From positions 1-64,000 of IMG/VR virus record IMGVR_UViG_3300037475_000199: DNA of 64,000 nt. One strand, given 5' to 3'. This DNA is from a virus. Below are positions 4,682-42,667 of this stretch, piece by piece (positions within the stretch are counted from its first letter, which is position 1; every line of letters starts with the position of its first letter). The position numbers and the translations under genes were made by a program. The notes beneath the pieces were generated by a model. That model searched no databases and was not told the DNA's origin. It saw nothing but the letters and a program-made list of their open reading frames with translations.

Positions 4682-4914
4682 AAATTAATATAGAAAAAGC
4701 GTCTGCTAAAGCAAAGTGTCGTGGTATTAAATGTAAAAAAATGCCAGAATATATTAATCGTAAAGGTAGAATAAGAAAAGATACATCTTGTGCAGCTATT
4801 AGAATGTCCTCTAGTGGTGGCTGGCATACATCTTATTATTGTAGAGATTGCATTGATGTTATTTATTTAGATATGAAAGCGCAACTGAATCCTAGTTTAT
4901 GGATATTTAAATGA
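4678..4914 (+). CDS. hypothetical Cys-rich protein
   Basis: ATGA overlap with the upstream gene. CRGIKC...CRDC motif. Confidence 0.35.
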   Translation: MKINIEKASAKAKCRGIKCKKMPEYINRKGRIRKDTSCAAIRMSSSGGWHTSYYCRDCIDVIYLDMKAQLNPSLWIFK

Positions 4915-9007: not shown

Positions 9008-9079
9008 TGGGGAATAGACTAATGGCAGGTCCTTTCGCGTTGAACGAAAACGGTGTGGGTTCGAATCCTACTTCCCCAA
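9008..9079 (+). tRNA. tRNA-Gln (TTG) (probable)
   Basis: U1:A72 acceptor, TGGGGAA pairing with TTCCCCA. D-arm GACTAATGGCAGGTC. Anticodon stem TTTCG/CGAAA with loop CGTTGAA. T-arm GTGGG-TTCGAAT-CCTAC. Confidence 0.55.
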
Positions 9080-9228
9080 CAATTAATATTATATAAAAAT
9101 AATTTGGGACATTTTACCACAATAGAAACGATGATTTACGGGACATTTATAGACTTTATTATCTAAGTCATGGTAATAAATATGAATTACATCATGTAAC
9201 TTAGTTATCTTTAACGAGGATAAGTGTA

Positions 9229-11457: not shown

Positions 11458-12033
11458 ATGAGTAAGTACTCTGAGATATTAGAACAAGCCGATTTATTCT
11501 GTTTTGCTGTTGTTAGCAAGGTTTTTGGACCCTATAAACGCGAATCAGATGGTCGTCAAATTGTTATTATTAGAGATGAAAGCGGAAATACAAGAACTGT
11601 TTCATATCCTAAATATTTAATGGAACAACATTTAAATAGAGTACTTGATCCTGATAAACACACAGTTGATCATTGGGACTCTAATAAAGATAATAATGAT
11701 ATTAGTAATCTTCGAATTATGCCAAGAGATGAGCATTCCAGAGAAGACACTCGCAGAGTTAAATTAGTAAAATTTAAATGTAAATTATGTGACAAAGAGT
11801 TTGAAAGATCTCCTCGTCTTATTAGAGATAAGGCTAAGAAGAATAAAGCTGGACCCTTTTGCTCTAGACCATGCGCTGGGCGTTACAGTCGAAAGTTACA
11901 ACTTAAGCTGATAGACAAGCTGGGTCCACAGCCAATGGTTGACAGCGAATATTATAAAAAGAAATACGCATCCTCTTACGTTGATGTAGAAAATTTATTT
12001 ATAGATTATTTTTGTGATATTTGGGAAGAATAA
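11458..12033 (+). CDS. HNH homing endonuclease
   Basis: TVDHWDSNKDNNDISNLRIMPRDEH is an HNH motif. A CKLC...CSRPC zinc ribbon follows. Confidence 0.6.
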   Translation: MSKYSEILEQADLFCFAVVSKVFGPYKRESDGRQIVIIRDESGNTRTVSYPKYLMEQHLNRVLDPDKHTVDHWDSNKDNNDISNLRIMPRDEHSREDTRRVKLVKFKCKLCDKEFERSPRLIRDKAKKNKAGPFCSRPCAGRYSRKLQLKLIDKLGPQPMVDSEYYKKKYASSYVDVENLFIDYFCDIWEE

Positions 12034-12050
12034 AATAAAATTATTTGCTC

Positions 12051-12079
12051 TTGACATTTAATTATTAGTAATTAAGTTT
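12051..12079 (+). promoter_or_regulatory. possible sigma70-like promoter (TTGACA at 12051; weak -10)
   Basis: Exact TTGACA at 12051-12056, followed after about 17 nt by an A/T-rich hexamer (TAAGTT/AAGTTT). It lies upstream of the NADAR gene. Confidence 0.25.
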
Positions 12080-12094
12080 CCATTTGGAGAATTA

Positions 12095-12592
12095 ATGAAT
12101 AAATACAATTATACAATTAAAGATAACTACTTATTATTTTGGAGTGGTCACTTTTCTAATTGGTATCCCGCCTCATTTATTATAGGATCAATGACATTTA
12201 ATTGTGTTGAACAATATATGATGTACATGAAAGCTAAAACTTTTAATGACCAAGAGACTATGGATAAAGTTATGGCAACTTTAGATGCTAAAGAACAAAA
12301 GAAATTGGGTCGTGGAGTTAAAAACTTCAACCCTGTTGCTTGGGATCTTGTAAAGGAAGAAGTTGTTTATGATGGTTGTTTTGCTAAATATTTACAAAAC
12401 TTAGATCTTAAAGAAGATATTATTAAAACAAATGATTTAATGCTTGTTGAAGCATCTCCATATGATAAGATTTGGGGAATTGGAATGAGCGCAAAAGATC
12501 CTGATGTCACTGATGAAAGTAAGTGGAAGGGTGAAAATTTATTAGGCAAAGCCTTAATGAAAGTTCGAAATAAATTAAAAGGAAACGCATGA
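12095..12592 (+). CDS. NADAR (DUF1768/YbiA-like) domain protein, copy 1
   Basis: FWSGHFSNWYPASF...CVEQYMMYMKA...LLGKALMKVR matches the NADAR signature (F...S.FSNF...F.....EH.yQa.K). Confidence 0.55.
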   Translation: MNKYNYTIKDNYLLFWSGHFSNWYPASFIIGSMTFNCVEQYMMYMKAKTFNDQETMDKVMATLDAKEQKKLGRGVKNFNPVAWDLVKEEVVYDGCFAKYLQNLDLKEDIIKTNDLMLVEASPYDKIWGIGMSAKDPDVTDESKWKGENLLGKALMKVRNKLKGNA

Positions 12593-12951
12593 GCATTGAG
12601 AAATTTGATGATTTAATTGGCAAGACATTTGTAGAAGTTAAAAATGATAATTATGATGAATTAGTTTTTAAACTAAAAGATGGTAGTGGATATAAATTTT
12701 ATCATTCACAAGACTGTTGTGAAAGTGTATCAATTGAAGACATTATTGGAGATCTTTCTGATTTATGTGGATCCCCAATAATAGAGGCAGAGGAAATTTC
12801 TTCTGAACCACCAAGACAAGAATATAATCATGAGTCATGTACTTGGACATTTTATAGATTCTCTACTGTTAAAGGAACTGTAACTGTTCGTTGGTTAGGA
12901 ATTTCCAATGGTTATTATTCTGAAAGTGTATCTTTCGGAGAATTTAAATGA
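12589..12951 (+). CDS. hypothetical protein
   Basis: ATGA overlap. Confidence 0.4.
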   Translation: MSIEKFDDLIGKTFVEVKNDNYDELVFKLKDGSGYKFYHSQDCCESVSIEDIIGDLSDLCGSPIIEAEEISSEPPRQEYNHESCTWTFYRFSTVKGTVTVRWLGISNGYYSESVSFGEFK

Positions 12952-13268
12952 AAAAAGATACTTTAAAAGATTTTTTTCGTGGTTGGTTCATTGGTAATTT
13001 TAGCCCAACTCTTATTAAAACTAATGAAGTGGAAATTGGAGTGAAAAGATATAAGGCAGGAAATTCTGAAGCAGCTCATCATCATAAGATAGCTACTGAA
13101 ATAACAGTTATTATTTCTGGGGAAGTAGAAATGAATGGCGTTAAGTATGTTGAAGATGATATTATTGTAATTGACCCCAATGATAGTACAGACTTTAAAT
13201 GTCTTACCGACGTTGTAACCGTGGTAGTTAAATATCCTGGTGCAAACAACGACAAATATGTTGATTAA
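12948..13268 (+). CDS. cupin-fold small protein
   Basis: G.K.......AAHHHKIATEITVIISGEVEM.G matches the cupin two-His pattern. Confidence 0.4.
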   Translation: MKKDTLKDFFRGWFIGNFSPTLIKTNEVEIGVKRYKAGNSEAAHHHKIATEITVIISGEVEMNGVKYVEDDIIVIDPNDSTDFKCLTDVVTVVVKYPGANNDKYVD

Positions 13269-13298
13269 TTTTTAAAATATTTGAATAGTTGACAGTGC

Positions 13299-13326
13299 CT
13301 TTCGAGTGATTATCTTGTCAGCGTAA
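13299..13326 (+). promoter_or_regulatory. sigma70-like promoter (TTGACA-16-TATCTT)
   Basis: TTGACA at 13299-13304, a 16-nt spacer, then TATCTT. Upstream of the gene at 13367. Confidence 0.35.
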
Positions 13327-13366
13327 ATGGTAGAAATACCCAAATTTTATTTAATTGGAGTTTATT

Positions 13367-13663
13367 ATGAGTAAAGAAGTTGATTCTATGTTGGAAGAGA
13401 TTGGTAATGTGTTAAGAGCTACTGAGACAAATCTTGATAGCTTAAATAGTGGGGAGCGCATTCAAATTAAAGATTTGGCTGCTGCCGTGGGCTTGGCTAC
13501 TGCTAAAGAGCCAAAGCATGTTATGCCTTTTGTTAATCATTTCGTTCACAATACCACTTTAGCTTATGTCACTCGTGGCAAGAATGGTGGCATTATAAAG
13601 GGAAGTAAGCCTGCTAAAGTAATAAAAGCTGGTAAAAAAACTGACCCTACTGAAACTGTTTGA
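13367..13663 (+). CDS. hypothetical protein
   Basis: ATG 13367 with the TGGAG Shine-Dalgarno. The track's start at 13355 is a TTG. Confidence 0.4.
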   Translation: MSKEVDSMLEEIGNVLRATETNLDSLNSGERIQIKDLAAAVGLATAKEPKHVMPFVNHFVHNTTLAYVTRGKNGGIIKGSKPAKVIKAGKKTDPTETV

Positions 13664-13687
13664 AACTTAAAGTTTCTTGGTTAAGAA

Positions 13688-13716
13688 GGCTGGCTTTGGT
13701 CCAGCCTTTTCTTTTT
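13688..13716 (+). terminator. intrinsic terminator
   Basis: GGCTGG-CTTTGGT-CCAGCC hairpin followed by TTTTCTTTTT. Confidence 0.6.
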
Positions 13717-13729
13717 GAGGATTAAATTT

Positions 13730-15007
13730 ATGAAGACTATTAATATTATTGGCGGCGGCACCGTATCTTATATTAGAAATCATTTAGCATTATGTGCTCC
13801 AGCTTATGGTAGTACAGCTAAAAAACTTGAGAAGTTGTGTCGACAAAAGAATTCTCGAGCTAATAATAAAGCTTATGGAATCTATTGCCATTTAACTAAA
13901 ATGGCTGATTCAACCTCTGACCTGGAAACTAATGAAGATATTTCTAATTTATTAGATAAATTAATTGCAAATCCAGATACCAAAATTATTTTCTTTAATC
14001 CAGCCTTAGTTGATTTTAATGGAAGCATTGCCCCAGAAAAAGAATGGAATGTAGATTGGGAAACAGGATCTATTTCTGGTAAATATGAAAGTAGACTAAA
14101 AACATCTGAGGGCTCTCAATTAATGCTGCTCACTCCGGCAGAGAAATTAGTTTCAAAAATTCGTAAGCAACGTAAAGATATTTTTCTTGTAGCCTTTAAG
14201 ACTACTTGTGGTGCCACAGCAGACGAGCAGTTTTTAACTGGCTTGCACTTACTCAAGTCTTCTAGCTGTAACCTTGTTGTAGCCAATGATACTAAAACTA
14301 GACTTAATATGATTATTACTCCAGAACAAGCCCGCTACTCCGTTACTACAAATAGAGATGAGATGTTATCTGAGTTAGTCGATATGACTTTGGCTAGAGC
14401 AAATTTAACCTTTACAAAATCTACAGTAGTAGAAGGGGATACAGTTTCATGGTCTGCCAAAGCAGTTCCTGATTCTTTGAGAACAGTCGTAGATCATTGT
14501 ATTACTAAAGGCGCTTACAAACCATTTAATGGATCAACAGTTGGACATTTTGCTGTTAAGATTGATGATAATATTTTCTTAACCTCTAAGAGAAAAACAA
14601 ATTTTAATAATTTAAATAAGGTTGGGTTGGTAAAAGTTGAATCTAGTGGTCCTGATGAGGTCGTGGCTTATGGCAGTAAACCAAGTGTGGGCGGGCAGTC
14701 GCAGAGGATTGTTTTTAAGGATCATCCGGAGATGGATTGTATTGTTCATTTTCATTGCCCTCAGAAGGGCTTAGACGTTCCTGTAAGACCTCAGAAGTTT
14801 TTTGAGTGTGGTAGTCATGAGTGTGGCGAAAACACTTCTAAAGGGTTAGCAGAGGTTGTTTCGGGCATTAAATGTGTTTATTTGGACAATCATGGTCCCA
14901 ATATTGTTTTCAATAGAAATATTGATCCACAAAAGGTAATTAATTTTATTGAAGAGAATTTTGATTTATCTCAAGCTACCGATGAAATAAACAGGAATAA
15001 TTTATGA
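13730..15007 (+). CDS. hypothetical Rossmann-like protein (weak CoaB/flavoprotein-family resemblance) with C-terminal Cys/His cluster
   Basis: ATG 13730 after GAGGA. N-terminal IIGGGTVSYIRNHLALCAPAYGSTA is a glycine loop followed by Y-I-x-N-H. C-terminal CIVHFHCPQ...ECGSHECGE. Confidence 0.35.
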   Translation: MKTINIIGGGTVSYIRNHLALCAPAYGSTAKKLEKLCRQKNSRANNKAYGIYCHLTKMADSTSDLETNEDISNLLDKLIANPDTKIIFFNPALVDFNGSIAPEKEWNVDWETGSISGKYESRLKTSEGSQLMLLTPAEKLVSKIRKQRKDIFLVAFKTTCGATADEQFLTGLHLLKSSSCNLVVANDTKTRLNMIITPEQARYSVTTNRDEMLSELVDMTLARANLTFTKSTVVEGDTVSWSAKAVPDSLRTVVDHCITKGAYKPFNGSTVGHFAVKIDDNIFLTSKRKTNFNNLNKVGLVKVESSGPDEVVAYGSKPSVGGQSQRIVFKDHPEMDCIVHFHCPQKGLDVPVRPQKFFECGSHECGENTSKGLAEVVSGIKCVYLDNHGPNIVFNRNIDPQKVINFIEENFDLSQATDEINRNNL

Positions 15008-15228
15008 GTCCTTGGGGAAAATTTTATTTAGAAACAATGGACTTTCGCCCTGATGCGTGGGCTCCATTTCATTCATGGCGAATGCATTATTTAATGGGAG
15101 AAATAGTTGAACGTTGGGGTTGGCGAGTTTCTAGGCACTTAGATCTATTATATAGAGAATTATATAATGAAGAAGATTTAATAATTGGATATAATAGAGA
15201 TAAGCAATATTATTGGCTTAGAAAGTAA
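15004..15228 (+). CDS. small Trp-rich hypothetical protein
   Basis: ATGA overlap. The ORF encodes five Trp. Confidence 0.35.
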   Translation: MSPWGKFYLETMDFRPDAWAPFHSWRMHYLMGEIVERWGWRVSRHLDLLYRELYNEEDLIIGYNRDKQYYWLRK

Positions 15229-15230
15229 AC

Positions 15231-15746
15231 ATGGTAACAAAACTTGAAATAGAAAGAAAATACTTAGTAAAATTCCCAGACTCCTGGTCGAGTTTGTCTG
15301 CCCTATTTGATCAACTGGTGGATGTTAAAAGAATATCACAAACTTATTTAAAACCCAAAGAAGGTGAACCTTCAGGTAGAGTTAGAAAAACTATTCAAGG
15401 ATTGACTGGAGATACTGATACGGTGTATCATTACAATCAAAAGCATTTCGTTGAAGCAGGTGTTAATAAAGAGACAGAAAAAGAAATTACCCGTAAACAA
15501 TACGAAAAATATTTAGAAAATCCGCTTCCTAATAAATTTACTTTAGAGAAAACCAGATTTGTTTTTAAATATAAAGATCAGTGCTTTGAGTTAGATGTTT
15601 TTAAGGGACCACTTAAAGGGCTGGCTATTTTAGAGATAGAACTTAAAAATAAAAAACAAAAAGTAGAATTGCCTCCTTATTTAAAAATAATTAAAGAAGT
15701 TACTAGTGATAAAAAATATAATAATTTTTCACTTTGTGAAAAATGA
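15231..15746 (+). CDS. CYTH-domain (CyaB/ThTPase-type triphosphate tunnel metalloenzyme) protein
   Basis: N-terminal LEIERKYLV is the hallmark ExExK start of CYTH. Size about 170 aa. Confidence 0.5.
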   Translation: MVTKLEIERKYLVKFPDSWSSLSALFDQLVDVKRISQTYLKPKEGEPSGRVRKTIQGLTGDTDTVYHYNQKHFVEAGVNKETEKEITRKQYEKYLENPLPNKFTLEKTRFVFKYKDQCFELDVFKGPLKGLAILEIELKNKKQKVELPPYLKIIKEVTSDKKYNNFSLCEK

Positions 15747-15811
15747 AGTCTTTTAATAAAGAGAAATATCCTTAACTTGAACTCTATTAATAGATTGATA
15801 TAATAATATAT

Positions 15812-15888
15812 GTCGTGGTAGCTCAGCCTGATAGAGCAGCGGATTGCAAACCCGCCGGTCGAAAGTTTAAATCTTTCCCACGACTCCA
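15812..15888 (+). tRNA. tRNA-Cys (GCA)
   Basis: Acceptor GTCGTGG pairs with CCACGAC. D-arm GCTCAGCCTGATAGAGC. Anticodon loop TTGCAAA. T-arm GAAAG-TTTAAAT-CTTTC. U73 with CCA. Confidence 0.7.
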
Positions 15889-15890
15889 AT

Positions 15891-15980
15891 GGAAATTTGA
15901 TCGAGCGGTTTATGATGTTAGTCTAGAAAACTAATGGAGGTGAAAGTCTCCCGAAGGTTCGAATCCTTCAATTTCCACCA
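15891..15980 (+). tRNA. type II tRNA (Ser/Leu class; anticodon ambiguous, loop CTAGAAA reads AGA)
   Basis: Acceptor GGAAATT pairs with AATTTCC. Anticodon stem TTAGT/ACTAA. Long variable arm GGAGGTGAAAGTCTCC. T-arm GAAGG-TTCGAAT-CCTTC. A73 with CCA. Confidence 0.55.
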
Positions 15981-15986
15981 TATAAT

Positions 15987-16078
15987 GGAAGGTAAATTAA
16001 CCAGGGTGTTGACCTAGTTTTGAAAACTAGTGGCTCCTTTGATAGGGAGTGCGTTTCGATTACTGCTACCTTCCTCCA
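15987..16078 (+). tRNA. tRNA-Ser (TGA), type II
   Basis: Acceptor GGAAGGT pairs with ACCTTCC. Anticodon stem CTAGT/ACTAG with loop TTTGAAA. Long variable arm. CCA present. Confidence 0.65.
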
Positions 16079-16082
16079 AAAT

Positions 16083-16177
16083 ATAAAGTTGCGTGAGTGG
16101 ATTAAACGATCACCCGAGTCAGGGTGAGAAAGAACTTATAAAAAGTCTTTCCAAAAGTTCGAATCTTTTACTTTATA
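16083..16177 (+). tRNA. aberrant type II tRNA-like gene (18-nt anticodon arm; possible 8-nt loop; pseudogene?)
   Basis: Acceptor ATAAAGT pairs with ACTTTAT. Three-bp D-stem CGT/ACG. Anticodon region TCACCCGAGTCAGGGTGA. Long variable hairpin GAAAGA...TCTTTC. T-arm AAAAG-TTCGAAT-CTTTT. No CCA. Confidence 0.35.
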
Positions 16178-16182
16178 TTTAT

Positions 16183-16271
16183 GGAAAGTAAATCAGCCAG
16201 GGCGCTGAATCTGTTTGCTAAACAGAATGTACCTTTATAGGTATTCGTTTCAAGTACGATGCTTTCCTCCA
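16183..16271 (+). tRNA. tRNA-Ser (GCT), type II
   Basis: Acceptor GGAAAGT pairs with GCTTTCC. Anticodon stem TCTGT/ACAGA with loop TTGCTAA. Variable hairpin GTACC...GGTAT. T-loop TTCAAGT. CCA present. Confidence 0.6.
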
Positions 16272-16298
16272 TAGTGCTCTTCAAAGAAAGAGTATAAC

Positions 16299-16709
16299 AT
16301 GTATTATACGTTACTAGTTTTTTTAGGTGTTGTTTTATACGGCATAGCTGCCTTCACCAGAAAACTAAGTGTAGAACAGATTAATCCATATCAAATACAA
16401 CTTATTTCTTGCATTGTTCATGCCGTTTTAATTCCAATACTAATGTATTTGGCTCCTAACAATAAGAACTTTAATACTTATAGTGTAGGCATGGCATCAC
16501 TTACAACTCTACTTGGAATAGGTGGAGGCTTAGCTTTTAGTTATTTGTTAAGAGGAAATGCAAATGCAGGGGTTGTTTCCGCTTTACTTGGAATTAGTCC
16601 GGTAGTTACTATTGCATTATCATATTTCTTTTATCATGATACAATTTCTGTTTGGAAATGTTTTGCATTTTTCTTTGCGATTTTAAGTGTGATTATGGTA
16701 AATTACTGA
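16299..16709 (+). CDS. small multi-pass membrane protein (EamA/SMR-like, 4 TM)
   Basis: Four hydrophobic segments across 136 aa. Confidence 0.4.
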   Translation: MYYTLLVFLGVVLYGIAAFTRKLSVEQINPYQIQLISCIVHAVLIPILMYLAPNNKNFNTYSVGMASLTTLLGIGGGLAFSYLLRGNANAGVVSALLGISPVVTIALSYFFYHDTISVWKCFAFFFAILSVIMVNY

Positions 16710-16727
16710 TATAAATATATAACTTAT

Positions 16728-16800
16728 AGGGCATAGTCAAGGTGATAATGGAGCCTCCAAAACTCCAGAAGGTCGGGTTCGATTCCCCCGTGCCCTGCCA
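16728..16800 (+). tRNA. tRNA-like gene (anticodon undetermined)
   Basis: T-arm TCGGG-TTCGATT-CCCCC. Acceptor AGGGCAT pairs with GTGCCCT. G73 with CCA. The central D and anticodon region does not fold canonically. Confidence 0.4.
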
Positions 16801-23127: not shown

Positions 23128-23202
23128 CGGTAATTAACTCAGAGGTAGAGTGCTACTCTAACACGATGGAAGTCACTGGTTCAAATCCAGTATTATCGAC
23201 CA
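23128..23202 (+). tRNA. aberrant tRNA (anticodon loop CTAACAC reads AAC; Val-like duplicate?)
   Basis: Acceptor CGGTAAT pairs with ATTATCG. D-arm ACTCAGAGGTAGAGT. Weak anticodon stem CTACT/GATGG with one mismatch and two G-U pairs. T-arm ACTGG-TTCAAAT-CCAGT. CCA present. Confidence 0.4.
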
Positions 23203-24460: not shown

Positions 24461-24544
24461 GCGGGTGTCGCATAGTGGCGATTGCGTCAGTTTTCCAAAC
24501 TGAAAATAAAAACACCGAAGGTTCGAGTCCTTTCACCCGCACCA
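24461..24544 (+). tRNA. tRNA-like gene with TCC anticodon loop and 13-nt unpaired variable region (aberrant Gly duplicate?)
   Basis: Acceptor GCGGGTG pairs with CACCCGC. Anticodon stem TCAGT/ACTGA with loop TTTCCAA. Variable region AAATAAAAACACC. T-arm GAAGG-TTCGAGT-CCTTT. A73 with CCA. Confidence 0.45.
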
Positions 24545-27621: not shown

Positions 27622-27697
27622 TCGGGAATAGATTAATAGGCAAATCTCCATACTCTGAATATGGTAAGTGTTGGTTCGAGCCCAACTTCCCGATCCA
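27622..27697 (+). tRNA. tRNA-Gln (CTG)
   Basis: U1:A72 acceptor, TCGGGAA pairing with TTCCCGA. D-arm GATTAATAGGCAAATC. Anticodon stem CCATA/TATGG with loop CTCTGAA. T-arm GTTGG-TTCGAGC-CCAAC. CCA present. Confidence 0.65.
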
Positions 27698-34633: not shown

Positions 34634-36085
34634 ATGAGAACAGTAATCGCAAGAAAAGAAGACTTAGAACATAGCAACGTTACCGACACTGATAGTTACA
34701 AGTTTAGCCATTTTATTTTATATAAGAAGGCTGGCGTAACTAGAATGTTTAGTTATCTAGAGTCTCGTGGTGGTGAATTTGATGTTTCTACTATTTCAGC
34801 CCTACAAGTAGCATTACATAGATACATTGCAAAAGGATTTAAGAGAAAGGACATTGATCGTGCAGAAAAGCTTGCAGCTAAACATGGCGTCCCTTTCAAT
34901 CGTCCAGGATTTGAAGCCATGTATAACAAATATAATGGTAAGTTTCCAGTTAGAATTAGATCTATTCCTGAAGGTATGATAGTTCCAGTTTCAACTGCAC
35001 TATTAACTATTGAGTGTTGTGACGAAGATTGTTTTTGGATTGTCAATTGGCTAGAGACTTTATTATCTAGAATTTGGTATCCTTCTACTATTGCAATTGC
35101 AAGTCGTTCAGTCAAGAAACTTTGGAAGCACTTCTTAGATATGACTTCCGATAATACTGATCTCGAAATTGGATTTAAGCATCATGATTTCGGATCTAGA
35201 GGAGTAACCTGCTTTGAGCAAGCCGAATTGGGCGGTATGGCTCACTTGTTGAGCTTCTTTGGTTCTGATACTTTAGCGGGTGTTGAGCTTGCCAATTACT
35301 ACTATGATTGTGATATGTCAGGATTCTCGATTTGTGCTACTGAACATTCTACCATGACTATTTTTGGTCGTGCTGGTGAACGTCAAGCACTTATTGATTG
35401 GATTACTGAAACATTGGTTAATGTTCCAAATATTCCTGGTGTACCTAAAGTGTCTGCTTGTGTTGGTGACAGCTACAATATCTATGATTTTACTACACTA
35501 GTAAGTCGTGATGATGAGGTAAGAAACTTAATTGCTAATTCAGGGGGCACTTTAGTAGTAAGACCAGATAGCGGTAAACCATCTGAAGTTCTTCCTAAAA
35601 TATTGGAATTGTTTGAGCAAAACTTGCCATCAGGATCTATTACTGTTAATAGTAAGGGATACAAAGTTCTACCTTCATATTTGAGACTTATTTGGGGTGA
35701 TGGCATTAACCGTCGTTCAATGAAAGATATTCTTCAATTAGTAGTTGATCTTGGTTGGAGTGCATCTAATATTGCGTTAGGTTCTGGTGGCGGTTTATTG
35801 CAAGATGTTAATCGTGATACACAGAAGTTTGCTTTTAAGTGTTCGTTTGCTGAAGCAAAAGGCGTCTCAATTGATGTTCTTAAAGATCCAATCACTGATC
35901 CTGGAAAGAAATCAAAAGCGGGTCGCCTTGACACTATTAAGCTTCCAGATGGTGAAATTAAAACAGTCTCCATTGGAGTAAATGAAGAATGTCATCCTCT
36001 TAGCATTATGAATACTGTTTTTGAAATGGGAGATATTACTTATCACACTACGTTCGCTGAATGTAGAGACAGAATGGCGCTATGA
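34634..36085 (+). CDS. nadV: nicotinamide phosphoribosyltransferase (NAMPT/NadV)
   Basis: DTDSYKFSHF near the N-terminus matches the NAMPT DSYK motif. About 480 aa, the size of NadV. Confidence 0.65.
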   Translation: MRTVIARKEDLEHSNVTDTDSYKFSHFILYKKAGVTRMFSYLESRGGEFDVSTISALQVALHRYIAKGFKRKDIDRAEKLAAKHGVPFNRPGFEAMYNKYNGKFPVRIRSIPEGMIVPVSTALLTIECCDEDCFWIVNWLETLLSRIWYPSTIAIASRSVKKLWKHFLDMTSDNTDLEIGFKHHDFGSRGVTCFEQAELGGMAHLLSFFGSDTLAGVELANYYYDCDMSGFSICATEHSTMTIFGRAGERQALIDWITETLVNVPNIPGVPKVSACVGDSYNIYDFTTLVSRDDEVRNLIANSGGTLVVRPDSGKPSEVLPKILELFEQNLPSGSITVNSKGYKVLPSYLRLIWGDGINRRSMKDILQLVVDLGWSASNIALGSGGGLLQDVNRDTQKFAFKCSFAEAKGVSIDVLKDPITDPGKKSKAGRLDTIKLPDGEIKTVSIGVNEECHPLSIMNTVFEMGDITYHTTFAECRDRMAL

Positions 36086-36360
36086 AAGTATTAAAGGCAC
36101 CCGAATTAGATAGTTGGTCAACAGAAGTTACATGTAAATGTACGGCTCTTCTTGAAATTGTTATTAGTGACATTTCTTCTCAATGTCATGAAGATAATGA
36201 TAGGTTTGCTGGAAGTATATATTATACATTTAATGTAAAGTGTCCAATCTGTAAAGACAGCATACCTATTCTTGAAAATAAAATGACTCCTGCTGTTAAG
36301 GCTCATTTAGAACATACAGCTAAAAGACCATATATAAGCTCTGGTCCCTGGGATAGATGA
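36082..36360 (+). CDS. small Zn-ribbon protein
   Basis: CKC...C and CPICKD Cys pairs. ATGA overlap. Confidence 0.35.
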   Translation: MKVLKAPELDSWSTEVTCKCTALLEIVISDISSQCHEDNDRFAGSIYYTFNVKCPICKDSIPILENKMTPAVKAHLEHTAKRPYISSGPWDR

Positions 36361-36977
36361 TTAATGCTGAAACAATAATTAAGACGTTTGGTTTAAATGC
36401 ATCAAACGTCTTAACCATTTTCCCTTACGGAAGTCAAGTTTACAAAACAGCTAATGAAAAATCAGACCATGATTTTATTGTTGTTTTTAAAGACGGAACA
36501 GTATCAGATGAATTTGCTATTACTAGAGACAATTTATCTATTCATTCCTATAATGATTCATCATTTCAAGATTTGTTAACCAGGCACAAAATAGCTGCAC
36601 TGGAATGTTATTTTTTACCCTCGGAATATTTATTATTAGAGAATAAAAAATACAAATTTTCCCTCCATATAGACATGTTAAGATCTACAATTAGCGAAAA
36701 ATCATCGCATTCTTTTGTGAAAGCTAAGAAAAAATTTGAAGTGGAAAAAGATCGCGATATTTATATTGCTAAAAAATCTTTATTTCATTCATTAAGAATT
36801 ATTGACTTTGGAACTCAAATAGCTGTTCATAAAAGAATTATTGATTATACATCCAGCAATCATTTATGGGAAGATATTTACACTGATCCTAATGAAGGTT
36901 GGGTTTCATATAAAGAAAAGTATCAGCCAATATTTAATTCTATGATGACTGAATTTAGAAAGGTAGCTCCTAAATAA
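36357..36977 (+). CDS. minimal Pol-beta-superfamily nucleotidyltransferase
   Basis: FPYGSQVYKTANEKSDHDFIVV matches the G[SG]-x9-13-DxD NTase signature. Confidence 0.45.
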   Translation: MINAETIIKTFGLNASNVLTIFPYGSQVYKTANEKSDHDFIVVFKDGTVSDEFAITRDNLSIHSYNDSSFQDLLTRHKIAALECYFLPSEYLLLENKKYKFSLHIDMLRSTISEKSSHSFVKAKKKFEVEKDRDIYIAKKSLFHSLRIIDFGTQIAVHKRIIDYTSSNHLWEDIYTDPNEGWVSYKEKYQPIFNSMMTEFRKVAPK

Positions 36978-37420
36978 TGGGCAACATAGCTTTTATTACA
37001 ACTAAAAAGCATATTAGGTCTTATAATATGTTTTCCTTGCTTCAAAAAATTAATGAATCAAAATTTGATGGAAAGCTAAATATTGTGGACGATATAAGTG
37101 CTTGGAGCATAAACTATCAAAATAATTGGGATAGTATAAATTACTATATTCGTAGTCCTAGAAAAATAGGTGCCAAACACCCTCATAATAATTGGATGCC
37201 TTATGTTTTTTCTGTTTTTCAAAATGAATTAGGCTATATGACGGATGGAAAATTAAGTGATGAATGCTGTAATGAATTTTGGTTACCAGAAAAAGATAAA
37301 TGGGAATCATATAAAGAATATAGATATGAGATGAATAGTTGGATGGAAGACGAAAATTCTCGAACATTAAGAACCATAGAAGATTTGCGGGATGTTCCTC
37401 CAGATATGGCAGGATATTAA
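36977..37420 (+). CDS. hypothetical protein
   Basis: ORF only. Confidence 0.4.
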   Translation: MGNIAFITTKKHIRSYNMFSLLQKINESKFDGKLNIVDDISAWSINYQNNWDSINYYIRSPRKIGAKHPHNNWMPYVFSVFQNELGYMTDGKLSDECCNEFWLPEKDKWESYKEYRYEMNSWMEDENSRTLRTIEDLRDVPPDMAGY

Positions 37421-37687
37421 ATGCGTGGTTGGACTGGCTTAGTTGGAAAAATAGACGGAGCTCATTTTTATTATGTAAATGGACTTTTGCATAGAGAAGA
37501 TGGTCCAGCCATAATAGAAGATAATGGAGATAAGTTTTGGATGCAAAATCATATGCTTCACAGATTAGATGGTCCTGCATCAGAATTTGCTGATGGTGGT
37601 AAAGAATGGTTTATTTGGGATGAAAAGATTCCGTGCTCATCTCAAGAAGAATTTGAAAGAGTTCTTAAGTTAAGAACATTTTGGTAA
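37421..37687 (+). CDS. MORN-repeat protein with KLRTFW tail
   Basis: YVNGLLHREDGPA and MQNHMLHRLDGPA repeats. C-terminus CSSQEEFERVLKLRTFW. Confidence 0.55.
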   Translation: MRGWTGLVGKIDGAHFYYVNGLLHREDGPAIIEDNGDKFWMQNHMLHRLDGPASEFADGGKEWFIWDEKIPCSSQEEFERVLKLRTFW

Positions 37688-37690
37688 CAA

Positions 37691-37960
37691 ATGAAAAACT
37701 CTTATAAAATGAAAGATGGAATTAATATTAGAGATGATGGCGCTATTTGTTATGTTAAAAATAGAAAATATCACAGAGAAGATGGACCGGCTATAATTTT
37801 AGAAGGACAATATAGATGTTGGCTTCAAAATGATGTATATTACCGTCTTGATGGACCAGCCGTGGAAGATGATAATGGTTATAAAGAATGGCATGTTGAT
37901 GATAAAGTATTCTTTACAGAAGAAGAGTATAGAATGTGGAAAATTAAAACTTTTAGTTAA
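37691..37960 (+). CDS. MORN-repeat protein with KIKTFS tail
   Basis: NRKYHREDGPA and VYYRLDGPA repeats. Confidence 0.5.
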   Translation: MKNSYKMKDGINIRDDGAICYVKNRKYHREDGPAIILEGQYRCWLQNDVYYRLDGPAVEDDNGYKEWHVDDKVFFTEEEYRMWKIKTFS

Positions 37961-37970
37961 GGATTAAAAT

Positions 37971-38885
37971 ATGTGTAATGTACTCGTAGGCACAGCTGTT
38001 GGTGATGCTTTAGGTGTTCCATTTGAAACTTTTTTGATAAATAATCCTCTTCTTTTAGATTGGGATGGAACAACTTATCTTGGAAGTAAATATCATGGTT
38101 TAGAACCAGGTCAATACTCAGATGACACTCAACTATCTATTTTGGTTGCTAAATCATTAATATTAAATTCTGGATTTAATCCAGACGATTTAGCTGCAAG
38201 ATATCAAGATTGGTTTTTTTCTGGCGTTGCACGAGGTTATGGTAAAACAACAAAGTTAGCTATGGAAGCTCTTAAAAGTGGTAAACATTGGAATGAATCT
38301 GGGATTGCCGGCTCTTTAGGTAATGGAACGGCTATGCGTGCAGCTCCATTTGGAGTTTACTTTAGAAATGATTTTAAACAATTAATTGCTGCAGTAAAAA
38401 TAGATTCAGCAATTACGCATGTTTCAGAAGATGCTGAAGCTGGAGCTATTGCTATTGCATTAACAGCAGCTTATGCCGTTAATCGTAACACTGAAAATCT
38501 TTTAGACAAAATTTGTGAAAATTTACCAGACTGTAAAGTTAAAAAAACAATTTCTAGTTTGGATGCATTAATTAACGCAGATAATATTACTCCTCCACAA
38601 GCTTTAAGAGTATTGGGGACAAAGGCTAATGTACAAGAAACTGTGCCCGCAGCATTATATTGTTTTCTGAAATTTGATAATTATCACGATGCTGTGCTTG
38701 CTGCAATTAAAGCTGGTGGTGATACCGACACTACTGCCGCAATAGTTGGAGCTTTATTTGGAGCCAGAGATGGAATCAAAAAGATAGATAGAAAATTTTA
38801 TTCGGTAGAAGATTTTGATAAATTAATAGAGTTAGATAGCCAGCTTTATAACAGATCTAATTCATTATTTTTTCCTAGAAACTAA
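37971..38885 (+). CDS. ADP-ribosylglycohydrolase (ARH/DraG family)
   Basis: N-terminal VLVGTAVGDALGVPFE matches the ARH GdAlG...E motif. C-terminal AGGDTDTTAAIVGALFGA is the metal-binding D-T-D region. Confidence 0.6.
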   Translation: MCNVLVGTAVGDALGVPFETFLINNPLLLDWDGTTYLGSKYHGLEPGQYSDDTQLSILVAKSLILNSGFNPDDLAARYQDWFFSGVARGYGKTTKLAMEALKSGKHWNESGIAGSLGNGTAMRAAPFGVYFRNDFKQLIAAVKIDSAITHVSEDAEAGAIAIALTAAYAVNRNTENLLDKICENLPDCKVKKTISSLDALINADNITPPQALRVLGTKANVQETVPAALYCFLKFDNYHDAVLAAIKAGGDTDTTAAIVGALFGARDGIKKIDRKFYSVEDFDKLIELDSQLYNRSNSLFFPRN

Positions 38886-38914
38886 TTATGAAAGAAATTC
38901 GGATAAGTAAATAA

Positions 38915-40414
38915 ATGTATAAGAAATATCCGCCTAAAAAACCAGATAATTCATATCTTGTTAAAGTAAATGTTAAACATAATTGGTCAGACTATCAAAA
39001 AGCTATTTTTAAAAGTATAGCCAAAGATACAGGACATTTAATAGTAGAAGCTTATGCTGGTAGTTCAAAAACCACTTCAGCCATTGAAAGCTTTAAATAT
39101 GTGCCAAAAGGTAAAAAAACTTTAGCATTAGCATTTAATAAAATAATTCAAGAAGAACTAAGATCTCGTAGTCCCTCTTATATTGAAACTTTTACTTTTC
39201 ATAGTTTAGGATATAGGGCTATTAAACAACGTTTTGGTAATGTTGAGTTAAATGATCATAAAGTATTTGATATTGTTTCTGAAACTTTAGATAAAAAAAC
39301 AAATTACGATCTTATAAATAATATTTGTGATACTGTTGCTTATTGCAAATATACACTTTCAGATACGCCTAAGCAAATTGAAGATTTAATTCTTAATTTT
39401 GGAATTGATACTTGTGAAATGGATGACGATAAATTTATTAAATTAGTTATTAATACTTTAGGCAAAAGTAAATCTATAACTAATAAAATAGATTTTAATG
39501 ATATGTGTTGGTTGCCGTTTGTATATAATTTACCTTTAGGTCAGTATGACTATGTTTATGTAGATGAAGCACAAGATTTAAATAAATCTCAGTTAGTAAT
39601 GGCTAAAAAAGCCAGTAAAACTAATTCTGGTAGAATAATTGTTATTATGGATCCTAATCAAGCGCTTTATTCTTGGCGCGGCGCCGATAGTACAGTAGTT
39701 GATTCTATTAAAAAAGATGAGACAACTAAATCATTACAATTACCAATATCTTATCGTTGTCCTCGATCAGTTATTGATTTGGCTAAAAAATGGGTGCCAG
39801 ATATTACTTGCCCAGAAACAGCAATAGATGGTGAAGTGTCTGATATTACCACAGACAAAATGTATGACATTGTAAAGCCTGGTTCCTTTATTTTATCAAG
39901 AACTAATGCCCCAATGATTAAAATATGTATGCTTTTAATTAAGAGAGGCATTAAAGCTAACATTCGTGGCAGAGATGTTGGAAAACAACTCAACTACTTA
40001 ATAAAGAAATCTAAAAAGAAACAAATGGCTGCTTTCTTAAAATGGTTAGAATGCTGGAAAGATGAAGAAGTTGAAAAGTTGATATCTAAAAAAATAAATA
40101 CAGATAATGTATTAGATAGATATGAATGTTTAGTGTCTTTGTGTGAAGAACACAAGACATTAGAAGAAGTTTCTGAAAAGATAGATCATTTATTTGATGA
40201 TACTGATGAAAAAAATATAGTTATTCTATCTTCTGTTCATAGAGCAAAAGGATTAGAAAGAGATAATGTCTTCATTTTAAGATGGACTTTTAGGCAATGG
40301 TTAGATGATAAGTTAGAGTTTATTGAAAAACCAAATGAAGAGGCAAATATTGCTTATGTTGCTGCTACTAGAGCAAAGAAATCACTATATATTGTTAGAA
40401 AAAGTGTAGTTTGA
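38915..40414 (+). CDS. SF1 UvrD/PcrA-like DNA helicase
   Basis: Walker A AYAGSSKTT. DEAQD box in YVYVDEAQDL. Motif VI-like VHRAKGLERDNVFIL. Confidence 0.55.
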   Translation: MYKKYPPKKPDNSYLVKVNVKHNWSDYQKAIFKSIAKDTGHLIVEAYAGSSKTTSAIESFKYVPKGKKTLALAFNKIIQEELRSRSPSYIETFTFHSLGYRAIKQRFGNVELNDHKVFDIVSETLDKKTNYDLINNICDTVAYCKYTLSDTPKQIEDLILNFGIDTCEMDDDKFIKLVINTLGKSKSITNKIDFNDMCWLPFVYNLPLGQYDYVYVDEAQDLNKSQLVMAKKASKTNSGRIIVIMDPNQALYSWRGADSTVVDSIKKDETTKSLQLPISYRCPRSVIDLAKKWVPDITCPETAIDGEVSDITTDKMYDIVKPGSFILSRTNAPMIKICMLLIKRGIKANIRGRDVGKQLNYLIKKSKKKQMAAFLKWLECWKDEEVEKLISKKINTDNVLDRYECLVSLCEEHKTLEEVSEKIDHLFDDTDEKNIVILSSVHRAKGLERDNVFILRWTFRQWLDDKLEFIEKPNEEANIAYVAATRAKKSLYIVRKSVV

Positions 40415-40444
40415 ATTTTATAAAAATGTGTGGTCTTGACTGCA

Positions 40445-40473
40445 CATTTTTAAATGATTAGGATAGTGAAATG
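40445..40473 (+). promoter_or_regulatory. sigma70-like promoter (TTGACT-17-TAGGAT) within an ATGTG...CACAT inverted repeat
   Basis: Hexamers at the correct spacing. AAATGTGTGGTCTTGACTGCACATTT forms an inverted repeat over the -35. Confidence 0.35.
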
Positions 40474-40929
40474 GAAAACCACGAAACACCAGAAGCTATT
40501 AAAGCAAGGGCTGAACAAGCGGACCCTCTTGTTATGTATTTAATAGTAAGAGAAGAGTTAGAAATGAGTATTGGTAAAGCTTGTGCTCAATGCGCTCATG
40601 CTAGCCAAATGATCACTTTAAAATATTTGCCATTATATATTAAATATTTTGAAAAAGATATTGAGAATTCTGGTTGGATTGATAAAAGTTCATATGAAAG
40701 TTACTTAAGTTTTGTTGAATGGCTTGCCGGTTCTTTTCGTAAAGTGGTTCTTAAATCAGATGAAAAAGAATGGGTTAAAATCAAAAACGAGTTACCCAAC
40801 AACTCAATAATCGTTGTTGATGCGGGTTTAACCGAGCTTCAACCAAATACAGAAACAGTAATTGGTCTTTGGCCAATGAAAAGAAGTGAACGACCCAAAA
40901 TAATCAAAAAATTGCAAGTTTTAACATGA
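40471..40929 (+). CDS. peptidyl-tRNA hydrolase, PTH2 family
   Basis: PLVMYLIVREELEMSIGKACAQCAHAS aligns with the PTH2 core ([25 protein letters not shown]). Confidence 0.6.
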   Translation: MENHETPEAIKARAEQADPLVMYLIVREELEMSIGKACAQCAHASQMITLKYLPLYIKYFEKDIENSGWIDKSSYESYLSFVEWLAGSFRKVVLKSDEKEWVKIKNELPNNSIIVVDAGLTELQPNTETVIGLWPMKRSERPKIIKKLQVLT

Positions 40930-41255
40930 AAAAAATAACTAAAAAAGTAAAAATAGAAGAAGAAACAAAAGAGTATGATTTATTGTATCCTGTTTTAAGT
41001 GGTGTAAAAATAAATCATATTTATAAATATATTATTGATTATTTTGAAGATGAAGTACTATATTTGAAAGAAAGAATTAAAGAACAAAAAGACTACATAA
41101 AATTTGAAACAGATTCATATAGGCTTCAGAAAAAAGAAGTAAAAGCAGAAGTTTTATCCATGTCTAAAAATAAAAAAGCTCTTGAAAAAGAATTAACGAA
41201 ATTAAAAATTTCGTTAAAAAACGCCGACCAATTAAAAGATAATTTATGGAAATAA
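40926..41255 (+). CDS. coiled-coil hypothetical protein
   Basis: K/E-rich heptad-like sequence. Confidence 0.4.
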   Translation: MKKITKKVKIEEETKEYDLLYPVLSGVKINHIYKYIIDYFEDEVLYLKERIKEQKDYIKFETDSYRLQKKEVKAEVLSMSKNKKALEKELTKLKISLKNADQLKDNLWK

Positions 41256-41503
41256 AAGTTATAGGATATCACCTAACTGAAATTAAAAAGGGTATTCTCG
41301 GCAAATCTTCTAAAATTCAAGAAGAGTTAGATGAATTGGTGGATGCCGAATTACAAAACAATAAAATATTAGCTTTAGTAGAGCTATCAGATTTATATGG
41401 AGCTTTGGAGGCTGTCGCTTCTTCTTACAATTGTTCTATGGATGATTTAAAGAAGATGTCTGATGCCACCAAAAGAGCGTTTACTAGCGGACATAGGAAA
41501 TGA
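41246..41503 (+). CDS. MazG-like nucleotide pyrophosphohydrolase (small all-alpha NTP-PPase)
   Basis: IQEELDELVDAELQNNKILALVELSDLYGALEAVA matches the EExxE...E..D pattern of MazG/HisE-type domains. Confidence 0.45.
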   Translation: MEIKVIGYHLTEIKKGILGKSSKIQEELDELVDAELQNNKILALVELSDLYGALEAVASSYNCSMDDLKKMSDATKRAFTSGHRK

Positions 41504-42039
41504 TTGATTATCACTTGATATCTAATTGTATTAAAAAATACGAAGATTTAGGTTACAAGTATATAGATGTTCCTTGGTTTACTACTGAAAAAATAGTTAA
41601 TATTACTTTGCCACCAGGCAAAAAACCTTTTCATATAAATAATGATTATTTAGTAGGTTCAGCAGAACAGTCTTTTTTACATTTAATTTTAGCTGGCGAA
41701 TTAAAAGATGGTAAATATGTTGCCGCTTCACCATGCTTTAGAGACGATGAAATAGATCAATATCATCAAAAATATTTTTTTAAAGTTGAACTGATTAATT
41801 ATTCCAATAGTTATAAGTTTGATTATTTTGATTTAATGAATGTTATTTCTGATGCACAAAGGACGTTATCTTCTTTATGTACCAAAACAATAAAATCTTC
41901 AAAAACAAATGAAGGCGTTGATTTATCAATAAATGATATTGAAATTGGATCATATGGTATACGACAATTTAGTAACTTTAATTGGATTTATGGAACTGGC
42001 TTGGCAGAGCCAAGATTTTCGAGTTTAAATTATGGATGA
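41500..42039 (+). CDS. mini class-II aminoacyl-tRNA-synthetase-like catalytic core
   Basis: Motif-2-like CFRDDEIDQYHQKYFFKVE (fRxE...H..F...E) and motif-3-like GTGLAEPRF (GxGxGxxR). Only 179 aa. Confidence 0.35.
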   Translation: MIDYHLISNCIKKYEDLGYKYIDVPWFTTEKIVNITLPPGKKPFHINNDYLVGSAEQSFLHLILAGELKDGKYVAASPCFRDDEIDQYHQKYFFKVELINYSNSYKFDYFDLMNVISDAQRTLSSLCTKTIKSSKTNEGVDLSINDIEIGSYGIRQFSNFNWIYGTGLAEPRFSSLNYG

Positions 42040-42667
42040 ATTTTTAATTATATCAGATGATGAAACTGAACGAAAAAGATATGCAAAAAAACTATTAAAG
42101 CAAGATTTTCTTACCAAAGAAAGTGAAAAGGCAAAAATTGCTATTACTAAGTTTTTAGAAGAAAATCCTGACATTAATATTGATTATGCCATTATTCATA
42201 TGAAAGATTCAATTTTAAGTACAATTAAATGCGCAGAAAAATTAGGAATTAGTCCAAAAGCTTTTCTTAGATTAAGAAAAAAGTATAATATTGTACCTGT
42301 CTCTGAAATTAAGAATAGTTATAAATCAAAAAGTTTTGCTCCGCATTTTTCAAAGAAAGCTACTAAGAATTTCTATAGCATTTATCAGCTAAAAAGAATT
42401 CCCAAATCAGAAATTGATTTATCTCAAAAAAGGTCGGGCAGTAATTTAAAGCTTGGAATTAAAATAAAATGGAAACCAAGAGGCTATCATTCAAATGGAA
42501 AATTAAAAGCTAGAACTGACTATTTGAGTAAATATGGATTTTTCGTTCTTTATAATCATAAAGATGATAATTATACTGTTAATAAAGATGACAAAAATAC
42601 AATTTTGTCAAAAAAAGAAGTAGATGTTTTGAATCAAAAATACTTACGATTAAAGAGCTTTGTATGA
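42032..42667 (+). CDS. hypothetical protein with RLKSFV tail
   Basis: Ends ...KYLRLKSFV. Confidence 0.4.
   Translation: MDEFLIISDDETERKRYAKKLLKQDFLTKESEKAKIAITKFLEENPDINIDYAIIHMKDSILSTIKCAEKLGISPKAFLRLRKKYNIVPVSEIKNSYKSKSFAPHFSKKATKNFYSIYQLKRIPKSEIDLSQKRSGSNLKLGIKIKWKPRGYHSNGKLKARTDYLSKYGFFVLYNHKDDNYTVNKDDKNTILSKKEVDVLNQKYLRLKSFV

Follow-up and report, generated by a model that had tools for sequence, protein, structure and literature searches.

A structurally conserved tRNA-like gene with a remodelled anticodon arm in the Cys-Ser tRNA array of a huge phage

The stretch of DNA analysed here, referred to as the window, comprises 64,000 nucleotides of low-G+C phage DNA (positions 1 to 64,000 of the IMG/VR virus record IMGVR_UViG_3300037475_000199) and carries, at 15812-16271, five co-oriented genes shaped like transfer RNAs (tRNAs) behind one promoter-like site. 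In order these are tRNA-Cys(GCA), tRNA-Ser(AGA), tRNA-Ser(UGA), a gene with an aberrant anticodon arm that is the main subject of this study (gene 4), and tRNA-Ser(GCU). Reading of the sequence, together with ARAGORN and Rfam, confirmed the five genes at the positions and with the anticodons given by the original prediction, which had been made from the letters alone. With default settings ARAGORN calls three of the five, namely Cys(GCA), Ser(AGA) and an unassignable gene with a four-base 'anticodon' agtc, and the Rfam tRNA model (RF00005) calls two, Cys(GCA) and Ser(AGA). The promoter-like site (15777..15804, + strand) consists of TTGAAC, a 16-nt spacer and TG-n-TATAAT and ends 7 nt 5' of the first tRNA; it is a consensus match only, with 10 of 12 consensus positions and an extended -10, and a TGATATA-like motif also stands 5' of the Cys gene in the related loci L007, L010, L012 and L033. 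Given this one upstream site and the lack of any real terminator-like site inside the array, where a terminator scan called nothing except tRNA D-arm hairpins, the array appears to be transcribed as a single unit; it would supply one Cys and three Ser decoders to its phage, a huge one of about 450 kb and low G+C. The placement of the phage in a huge-phage clade follows from the CYTH-domain gene that adjoins the array upstream: many contigs of 447-472 kb carry a homolog of it.

From the end of gene 3 to the start of gene 5 (16079..16182, + strand) the entire sequence folds as a single tRNA-like RNA, with a minimum free energy (MFE) fold at z = -3.9 and a core at 16083-16177 that ARAGORN reports as 'tRNA-?(agtc)' at 16082-16178. 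The 7-bp core of the acceptor, ATAAAGT/ACTTTAT, pairs 16083-16089 with 16170-16176, and a further 4 nt 5' of the gene pair with the 4 nt 3' of position 72, giving a terminal helix of 11 bp (16079-16089 with 16170-16180) whose leader-trailer pairing uses nearly the entire spacer on either side. The gene does not encode a CCA, and both here and in the ortholog described below the nucleotides at 73-76 are paired to the 5' leader. The D arm (16092-16108, CGT-GAGTGGATTAA-ACG) has 3 bp and an 11-nt loop, the variable arm is a 25-nt hairpin (16128-16152) and the T arm (16153-16169) reads AAAAG-TTCGAAT-CTTTT. The nucleotides of the elbow are canonical (U8, A14, the D-loop GG, the T-loop TTCGAAT and G53:C61), and these too are kept in the ortholog.

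The remodelled 'anticodon' arm (TCACCCGAGTCAGGGTGA, 16110..16127, + strand) can be written TCACC-CGAGTCAG-GGTGA and, as had been claimed, can fold in just two ways, as a 5-bp stem closing a loop of 8 nt or as a 6-bp stem closing one of 6 nt, there being no 7-nt register. The original prediction had allowed that an alternative fold might restore a canonical 7-nt loop with U33; none exists for gene 4. Position 33 is G, and C32 can pair with G38 to give the 6-bp stem and a hexaloop GAGUCA, which is the form taken by the MFE fold. The four-base call by ARAGORN is more than chance, a four-base anticodon being called in none of 515 tRNAs found by the same program in 544 kb of other phage loci. Searches of 701 nt and 197 nt at E-values up to 10 gave no match of gene 4 to the Rfam tRNA (RF00005) or selenocysteine tRNA (tRNA-Sec, RF01852) models, and the Rfam models for Y-RNA-like mimics and transfer-messenger RNA (tmRNA) gave only chance-level matches in 15700-16400 and 16079-16275, and a Y-RNA-like mimic was rejected. 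An intron-containing tRNA was rejected with ARAGORN -i. A shifted register, in which the U of the loop is taken as U33, gives CAG in the window and GCA in the ortholog and was set aside as inconsistent. Gene 4 can also be drawn in the 8/5 form of bacterial tRNA-Sec (RF01852), with a long variable arm and the letters UCA in its loop; however, its D arm of 3 bp and 11 nt is not the 6-bp stem and 4-nt loop of tRNA-Sec, and UCA lies out of register with the anticodon position, so that this identity was rejected along with the lack of a model match.

One distinct ortholog of gene 4 was found, at 4794-4892 of locus L007, and the same sequence occurs in L008 and L020 (447,763-bp phage contig). The CYTH protein of L007 is 82% identical to that of the window, the array is the same and the ortholog again lies between Ser(UGA) and Ser(GCU). 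The two genes are identical at 81 of 96 aligned bases (84%), which may be set beside 74% for the Cys gene, 95% for gene 3 and 82% for gene 5, and against only 38-46% at the 4-fold degenerate sites of four flanking genes, where about 35% is expected at saturation. When the 25 helix pairs of gene 4 are compared, 19 are unchanged, one has changed on one side and still pairs, five are compensatory (1:72, 6:67, 49:65 and two in the leader-trailer extension) and none is broken. The D arm, the T loop and the anticodon stem are nearly unchanged; the variable arm cannot be aligned between the orthologs, and a hairpin is still formed in both. At the level of sequence comparison, this shows gene 4 to keep its elbow, every helix and its long variable arm under what must be read as purifying selection. 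Given 84% identity beside near-saturated neutral sites and the lack of broken pairs, gene 4 is therefore neither a sequencing error, which this pattern of divergence rules out, nor, as the pattern argues strongly, a decaying pseudogene or a recent transfer. The suggestion that the gene is a degenerating copy is thus not supported, all 25 pairs being retained, and the alternative that the orthologs are canonical and the differences here are sequencing errors fails because the ortholog is itself non-canonical.

The loop, by contrast with the stems, has not been kept. The arm of the ortholog reads TCATC-CGTGCAG-GGTGA, with a pentaloop GUGCA in the closed form, and comparison of CGAGUCAG (window, 8 nt) with CGUGCAG (ortholog, 7 nt) finds the flanks C-G...A-G in common and a different middle. 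Both genes have G33 and a possible C32:G38 pair. ARAGORN labels the ortholog 'Ala(tgc)' and the window gene '?(agtc)', and neither a triplet nor a quadruplet anticodon is kept between them.

The closest homologs of gene 4 are canonical 7/5 tRNA-Ser(GGA) genes of the relatives L033, L010, L012 and L009, and because of this gene 4 is, on the evidence of alignment, shown to be a remodelled descendant of a canonical tRNA-Ser(GGA). It is 68% identical to the genes at L033 3730-3821 and L010 3900-3990 and has in common with them the D loop GAGTGG-T-AA, the ends of the variable stem (AAAG.../...TCTTTC) and the T arm AAAAG-TTC-AAT-CTTTT. The Ser(GGA) genes of L033 and L010 differ in having a CUGGAAA loop with U33, an acceptor starting with G, G73 and CCA, none of which is present in gene 4.

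Further orthologs of gene 4 were sought. The exact 18-nt anticodon arm has one match in IMG/VR, a chance match in a high-GC coding region (L001); a pattern of the loop plus the T loop found no further ortholog; patterns of the D arm and of the T-arm junction found only L008 in IMG/VR; and a flank-anchored pattern gave 14 matches in JGI metagenomes, of which only L020 is real. In GTDB genomes one gene-4 pattern had no match and the other 14 chance matches, blastn of gene 4 against GenBank phages returned only noise, and peptide-pattern scans of IMG/VR with two flanking proteins found nothing. A distant relative of 595 kb, LR756511.1, has 39 tRNAs near the homologous gene and no Ser tRNAs there. 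A 16,355-bp ENA contig (ERZ27296333) encodes a CYTH protein with 87% identity and leaves 676 nt free ahead of its EamA gene. A covariance model of gene 4 was dropped, since two sequences with an indel in the terminal helix gave no consistent pair columns.

The features of the anticodon arm were placed within a comparison set of 398 distinct tRNAs. Of these, 385 have U33 and 13 do not, and every gene in which C32 and G38 can form a Watson-Crick pair also has G33. Three of the 398 have an acceptor helix lengthened by 3 bp or more, two of them being the gene-4 orthologs. A tRNA-Gln(UUG) at L063 6650-6749 lies in a perfect 13-bp leader-trailer helix (TAGATAACTTCGC/GCGAAGTTATCTA), with a terminal stem of about 20 bp, which may be a processing helix. 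Within the window an encoded CCA is absent from all three genes without U33 compared with 2 of 17 genes with U33 (exact probability about 0.009). One of the 13 genes without U33 is a tRNA-Gln(UUG) of the window, at 9008-9080, which has the loop CGUUGAA, with G33, and no encoded CCA; in other respects it is canonical, at 51.6 bits in Rfam. The Gln(CUG) gene at 27622-27697 is normal and has both U33 and CCA. In the 78-nt 'tRNA-Met(CAU)' at 2227-2304 (Rfam 46.3 bits), which is also irregular, position 33 of the loop CACAUUU is A, the anticodon stem is weak, the variable loop has 9 nt and CCA is missing.

A second and unrelated family of tRNA-like genes with G33 belongs to another phage group (L047, L036 and L045), where its members are flanked by Val(UAC) and Tyr(GUA). 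These genes have a class I body and start with U1 (L047 5078-5150 and L045 6432-6503, with the same gene in L036, L058, L059 and L062), and their loops read CGCGGAG and CGUGGAG in L047 and L036 and UGUGAAA in L045. As with gene 4, the stems covary while the 'anticodon' drifts, here through CGG, UGG and UGA, and other positions of these clusters hold real Pro(UGG) and Ser(UGA) genes. The gene is missing from the close relative L041 (between 5600 and 5606). When closed by C32:G38, the loops of L007, L036 and L047 read GUGCA, GUGGA and GCGGA and fit G-N-R-N-A, which is a resemblance only. Pentaloops of the G-N-R-N-A type adopt a GNRA-like fold.

The reading favoured here, which is held with about even confidence, is that gene 4 is a non-decoding, stable tRNA mimic within the Cys/Ser decoder array. 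Such an RNA would no longer decode, would be cut from the precursor as its neighbours mature and would then persist as a stable tRNA mimic. More speculatively, it may be a decoy or competitor that acts in trans on some factor that binds tRNA, and the candidates for such a factor would include a seryl-tRNA-specific or general tRNA enzyme and a tRNA-targeting host defence nuclease. Against decoding stand the loops CGAGUCAG and CGUGCAG, common only in their flanks, and the MFE folds, which close C32:G38. Given that both the length and the sequence of the loop differ between the orthologs, a conserved frameshift or suppressor anticodon is argued against, and of the three options that the original prediction had offered (degenerating copies, frameshift or suppressor-type tRNAs, and tRNA-like regulatory decoys) the last fits best with the sequences at hand. 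Both tRNA-cleaving defences and variant phage tRNAs able to escape them have been documented (PMC10264068, PMC13056530), and nothing links them to gene 4.

Several observations weigh against a stable mimic. Only two distinct gene-4 sequences are known, and changes shared by descent are not independent events. G33 alone is no proof of lost decoding, given the otherwise canonical Gln(UUG) with G33 in the same phage. L033, the CYTH protein of which is 76% identical to that of the window, has no gene 4, its Ser(UGA) and Ser(GCU) genes lying 4 nt apart, so that this phage can do without the gene. Neither a partner protein nor a target was identified, and no site complementary to the loop was found nearby. 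Finally, the structural conservation could be explained entirely by a need to process the neighbouring genes.

This last point is the chief alternative, in which gene 4 is a processing module only: the fold would be kept so that RNase P frees the CCA end of gene 3 and gene 5 stays processable, with no role in trans, and the loop would be left to drift. The distribution of conservation is as this would require: variation falls in the loop and the variable arm, and what is kept is concentrated in the acceptor, T and D arms. The gene-4 helix lies directly 3' of the CCA of gene 3; in L033, moreover, gene 4 is missing from an operon that is otherwise unchanged. Nevertheless, this is judged unlikely, though it is to be taken seriously, for three reasons: first, deletion solves the same problem, as L033 itself illustrates. 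Second, recognition by RNase P does not need the anticodon stem, the loop flanks with G33 and C32:G38 or the leader-trailer extension, all of which are conserved or covary. Third, the second G33 family retains G33 over a deeper divergence.

It is also possible that gene 4 is a recently inactivated pseudogene or a recently recombined copy and that the similarity between the orthologs reflects a short time of divergence. The presence or absence of the gene does vary among relatives, phage tRNA clusters are mosaic, and relatives have an extra opposite-strand open reading frame (ORF) in the array. This is considered improbable, given that divergence of the variable arm has reached saturation in a gene whose D arm, T arm and stems were all kept, with five compensatory changes and no broken pair, that the synonymous sites of neighbouring genes are near-saturated, and that the uniformly high identity expected after a recent transfer is not seen.

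Less probable still is a decoding tRNA with an unusual loop, either a +1 reader of the quadruplet GACU or a Ser- or Leu-charged missense tRNA reading GAC in the window and GCA in the relative. Among known systems, +1 frameshift suppressor tRNAs have 8-nt anticodon loops, and expanded-loop tRNAs are known to keep U33 and a defined anticodon. A natural 8-nt loop can decode, as in yeast mitochondrial tRNA-Thr(UAG) (PMC7609411), and in its loop length gene 4 of the window is alike; it differs in having G33 and in having an ortholog with a 7-nt loop and another middle. Allo-tRNAs bear many non-Ser anticodons, including GUC (PMC5389517), the long variable arm of gene 4 could support serylation, ARAGORN does read a four-base anticodon in the window and Ala(UGC) in the ortholog, and the G33 tRNA-Gln of the same phage has a proper anticodon. 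However, neither the anticodon nor the length of the loop is conserved between the orthologs, U33 is missing and a Watson-Crick C32:G38 pair is possible, and the earlier suggestion of a frameshift or suppressor tRNA is not supported by these observations. Gene 4 furthermore lacks CCA and has leader-trailer pairing, and its acceptor starts with A and U only, where every Ser tRNA here starts GGAA, AGAA or GGTG. A canonical tRNA-Ala(UGC) and a canonical tRNA-Asp(GUC) are already present in the window, and in-frame GAC-U is ordinary (38 times in 17,644 codons), such that systematic quadruplet reading would harm. An error of sequencing or assembly in an ordinary tRNA gene, to which the extra base of the window loop over that of the ortholog might point, has a negligible chance of being correct, given that the same non-canonical ortholog occurs in independent assemblies (a JGI contig and a Logan contig), that no single-base edit of either loop yields a 7-nt loop with U33, and that the lack of CCA, the A/U acceptor and the extended helix are common to both orthologs.

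Returning to the stable mimic, the wider proposal that gene 4 is one of a recurrent, undescribed class of phage tRNA-derived mimics, kept in tRNA operons and binding a tRNA-recognising factor without being consumed, is put forward tentatively and is doubtful on present evidence. The traits of such a class may be G33, often a GNRNA-like loop closed by C32:G38, a drifting 'anticodon' and presence in some close relatives and absence from others. Gene 4, the only member found in an otherwise CCA-encoding phage, is also without CCA. The second G33 family described above would share the general traits of the class. Among the factors that such RNAs might bind are a tRNA enzyme and a nuclease with which the host cleaves tRNAs in defence.

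With regard to known systems, the tRNA cluster of phage T4 encodes the small stable RNAs C and D, which are not tRNAs and are co-transcribed and co-processed with tRNAs. The likeness of gene 4 to these is one of setting in a phage tRNA cluster and is a lead only. The irregular or inactive allo-tRNAs and 'tRNA1' species of a previous survey are charged and not used in translation, and were suggested to be regulatory non-coding RNAs (PMC5389517). Gene 4 resembles them as a tRNA-shaped gene in a polycistron with an anticodon unfit for its identity; they differ in coming from soil Acidobacteria, in having 8/4, 9/3 or extra-loop structures and in keeping 7-nt loops, and no toxin-antitoxin genes flank the present array, unlike the toxin-antitoxin loci at which those of PMC5389517 are found. 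Nor is gene 4 an (8/4) tRNA-Ser of the kind described in that survey (PMC5389517), its T stem having 5 bp and its D arm being of the ordinary class II type.

Genes 3 and 5, on either side of gene 4, had been taken as ordinary tRNAs by the original prediction; folds, ARAGORN and covariation indicate that both are non-canonical (8/4) cloverleaves. Gene 3, tRNA-Ser(UGA) (15987..16078, + strand), has an 8-bp acceptor (GGAAGGTA/TACCTTCC), a 5-bp D stem (TTAAC/GTTGA) with a 6-nt loop, the anticodon loop UUUGAAA, a long variable arm, U73 and CCA, and its MFE fold gives a 4-bp T stem with a bulged U at 16064. It is found neither by ARAGORN, even at -ps90, nor by the Rfam tRNA model; against the tRNA-Sec model of Rfam it reaches 40.2 bits, short of the gathering score (47). 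Its ortholog in L007 is the 95% identical gene noted above. Gene 5, tRNA-Ser(GCU) (16183..16271, + strand), likewise has an 8-bp acceptor (GGAAAGTA/TGCTTTCC), a 5-bp D stem (TCAGC/GCTGA), a 4-bp T stem (TCGT/ACGA), the loop UUGCUAA, U73 and CCA. It is not called by the Rfam tRNA model, and ARAGORN finds it only at -ps90, where it is drawn as 8/4 in agreement with the MFE fold (z = -3.8). The variable-arm hairpins of the two genes have 6-7 bp.

A pattern based on gene 5 found 30 loci in IMG/VR, with G+C from 29% to 54%, and 20 distinct sequences were aligned for pair counts. Over these 20, 94.7% of cells are paired under the 8/4 structure and 19 of 28 pairs have changes on both sides, values reached by no shuffled or slid control. 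All four pairs of the T stem are paired in 100% of sequences and all covary, as do all five pairs of the D stem. Pair 8:82 is A:U in every member, where the 7/5 alternative would demand U:U in 19 of the 20; the sequence of the acceptor stem was fixed by the search pattern, and its invariance carries no weight. This covariation supports the 8/4 structure of genes 3 and 5.

The (8/4) tRNA-Ser was described in phage tRNA clusters by Mukai et al. 2017 (NAR 45:2776, PMC5389517) while false positives for tRNA-Sec were being screened. Genes 3 and 5 are like those tRNAs and allo-tRNAs in the 8-bp acceptor, the 4-bp T stem, the long D stem with a small loop and U73, and also in the long variable arm, the Ser anticodons and the setting in a phage tRNA cluster. 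A difference is the bulged U in the 3' strand of the T stem of gene 3, the bulged variants of that paper being Cys and Sec tRNAs. Genes 3 and 5 are putative serine decoders. Arthrobacter phage Atuin has the same 8/4 Ser(GCU) gene in its tRNA cluster (OK040794.2, about 95992-96079; L002 2501-2588), where it carries no annotation and where ARAGORN does call it.

The two genes at the head of the array are canonical. Gene 1, tRNA-Cys(GCA) (15812..15888, + strand), is a 7/5 cloverleaf with U73 and an encoded CCA, found by ARAGORN and by the Rfam tRNA model at 58.5 bits. Gene 2, tRNA-Ser(AGA) (15891..15980, + strand), is a class II 7/5 tRNA with A73 and an encoded CCA, found by ARAGORN and by Rfam at 54.8 bits; it is a canonical Ser tRNA and its A34 is real (loop CUAGAAA). 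This slot of the array differs between genomes, being filled by 7/5 Ser(AGA) in the window, 8/4 Ser(GGA) in L007 and 7/5 Ser(GGA) in L033. That A34 is unusual, as had been remarked, is borne out by the 515 tRNAs of other phage loci, among which A34 occurs only in Arg(ACG), 18 times, and Leu(AAG), twice. A second A34 gene of the window, Val(AAC) at 23128-23202, adjoins Val(UAC); in the corresponding region of L008, the 448-kb relative, only Met and Val(UAC) are present. Counted over 100 ORFs of the window, UCU accounts for 39% of Ser codons and UCC for 5%, and GUU for 55% of Val codons and GUC for 6%; given that UCU and GUU are the commonest, Ser(AGA) and Val(AAC) are therefore the Watson-Crick matches of the commonest codons. 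Bacterial A34 beyond Arg is known in some Firmicutes, and in PMC11472039 editing beyond Arg(ACG) is shown only for Leu(AAG), with inosine at position 34 (I34) in, for example, Streptococcus pyogenes and Oenococcus oeni. The window genes are like these in carrying A34 outside Arg and differ in being Ser and Val; a simple regex search of the window ORFs, which is a weak test, found no TadA-like deaminase motif.

ARAGORN at its defaults finds 17 tRNA genes in the window, all on the + strand, which the ORFs of the window also tile; the genes include those for an NAD-dependent ligase, a nicotinamide phosphoribosyltransferase (NAMPT) and a helicase. Many NAD- or nucleotide-related genes lie at 11458-15746 and at about 34634-48823, namely NADAR (12095-12592), a class II aldolase-like protein of 430 aa, the CYTH protein that adjoins the array upstream, NAMPT and the ligase, and relatives additionally carry an ADP-ribosylglycohydrolase and an NAD synthase. 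Among 100 + strand ORFs of at least 80 aa the stops are TAA in 61, TGA in 38 and TAG in 1, such that TAG is almost unused. A Cys-Ser tRNA array follows the CYTH gene in all eight distinct relatives that reach past it (L007-L015, L033). The opposite-strand ORF mentioned above, of 230-238 aa, is inserted in the arrays of two relatives (L007 3917-4633 and L033 3781-4473, both - strand), between the Ser gene of slot 2 and Ser(UGA). The window lacks this ORF, and no Pfam match to it is convincing, zf-FCS scoring 21.4 bits and falling short of the cut-off. Between the array and an EamA-family gene, a small hairpin read from the sequence, (G)CTCTT-CAAAGA-AAGAG(T) (16276..16293, + strand), has similar hairpins at the same place in L007, L030 and L031 and was not called by the terminator scan.

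Other tRNAs of the window depart from the norm in their own ways. An 84-nt tRNA-Gly(UCC) at 24461-24544 has about 14 unpaired nucleotides in its variable loop, an uncommon feature in a Gly tRNA, and is kept in a relative (L008 6108-6191); a normal 75-nt Gly(UCC) lies 120 nt upstream. A tRNA-Trp(CCA) at 16727-16799, found by ARAGORN only at -ps90, is without CCA, has a T stem of 4 bp below an enlarged T loop and is kept downstream of the EamA gene in L007, L031 and L033. Both this gene and a tRNA-Ile(UAU) called by ARAGORN at 1548-1622 fall below the Rfam tRNA threshold.

In summary, three of the five genes of this array escape the Rfam tRNA model and two escape ARAGORN at its defaults. The (8/4) cloverleaf of genes 3 and 5 is already known from phages, and the Ser(GCU) gene of phage Atuin carries no annotation. 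For serine, the tRNA repertoires of phages are therefore systematically incomplete, as are the arguments from codon usage that rest on them. It may be asked of the Ser and Val tRNAs with A34, which match the commonest codons of this AT-rich phage, whether the base stays unmodified or is served by an expanded I34 system in the host. As for gene 4, a tRNA-shaped RNA kept by selection with a loop very probably unable to decode would join the few known tRNA mimics with non-translational roles, and would be a concrete candidate for an interaction of the phage with tRNA-targeting immunity or with tRNA enzymes.

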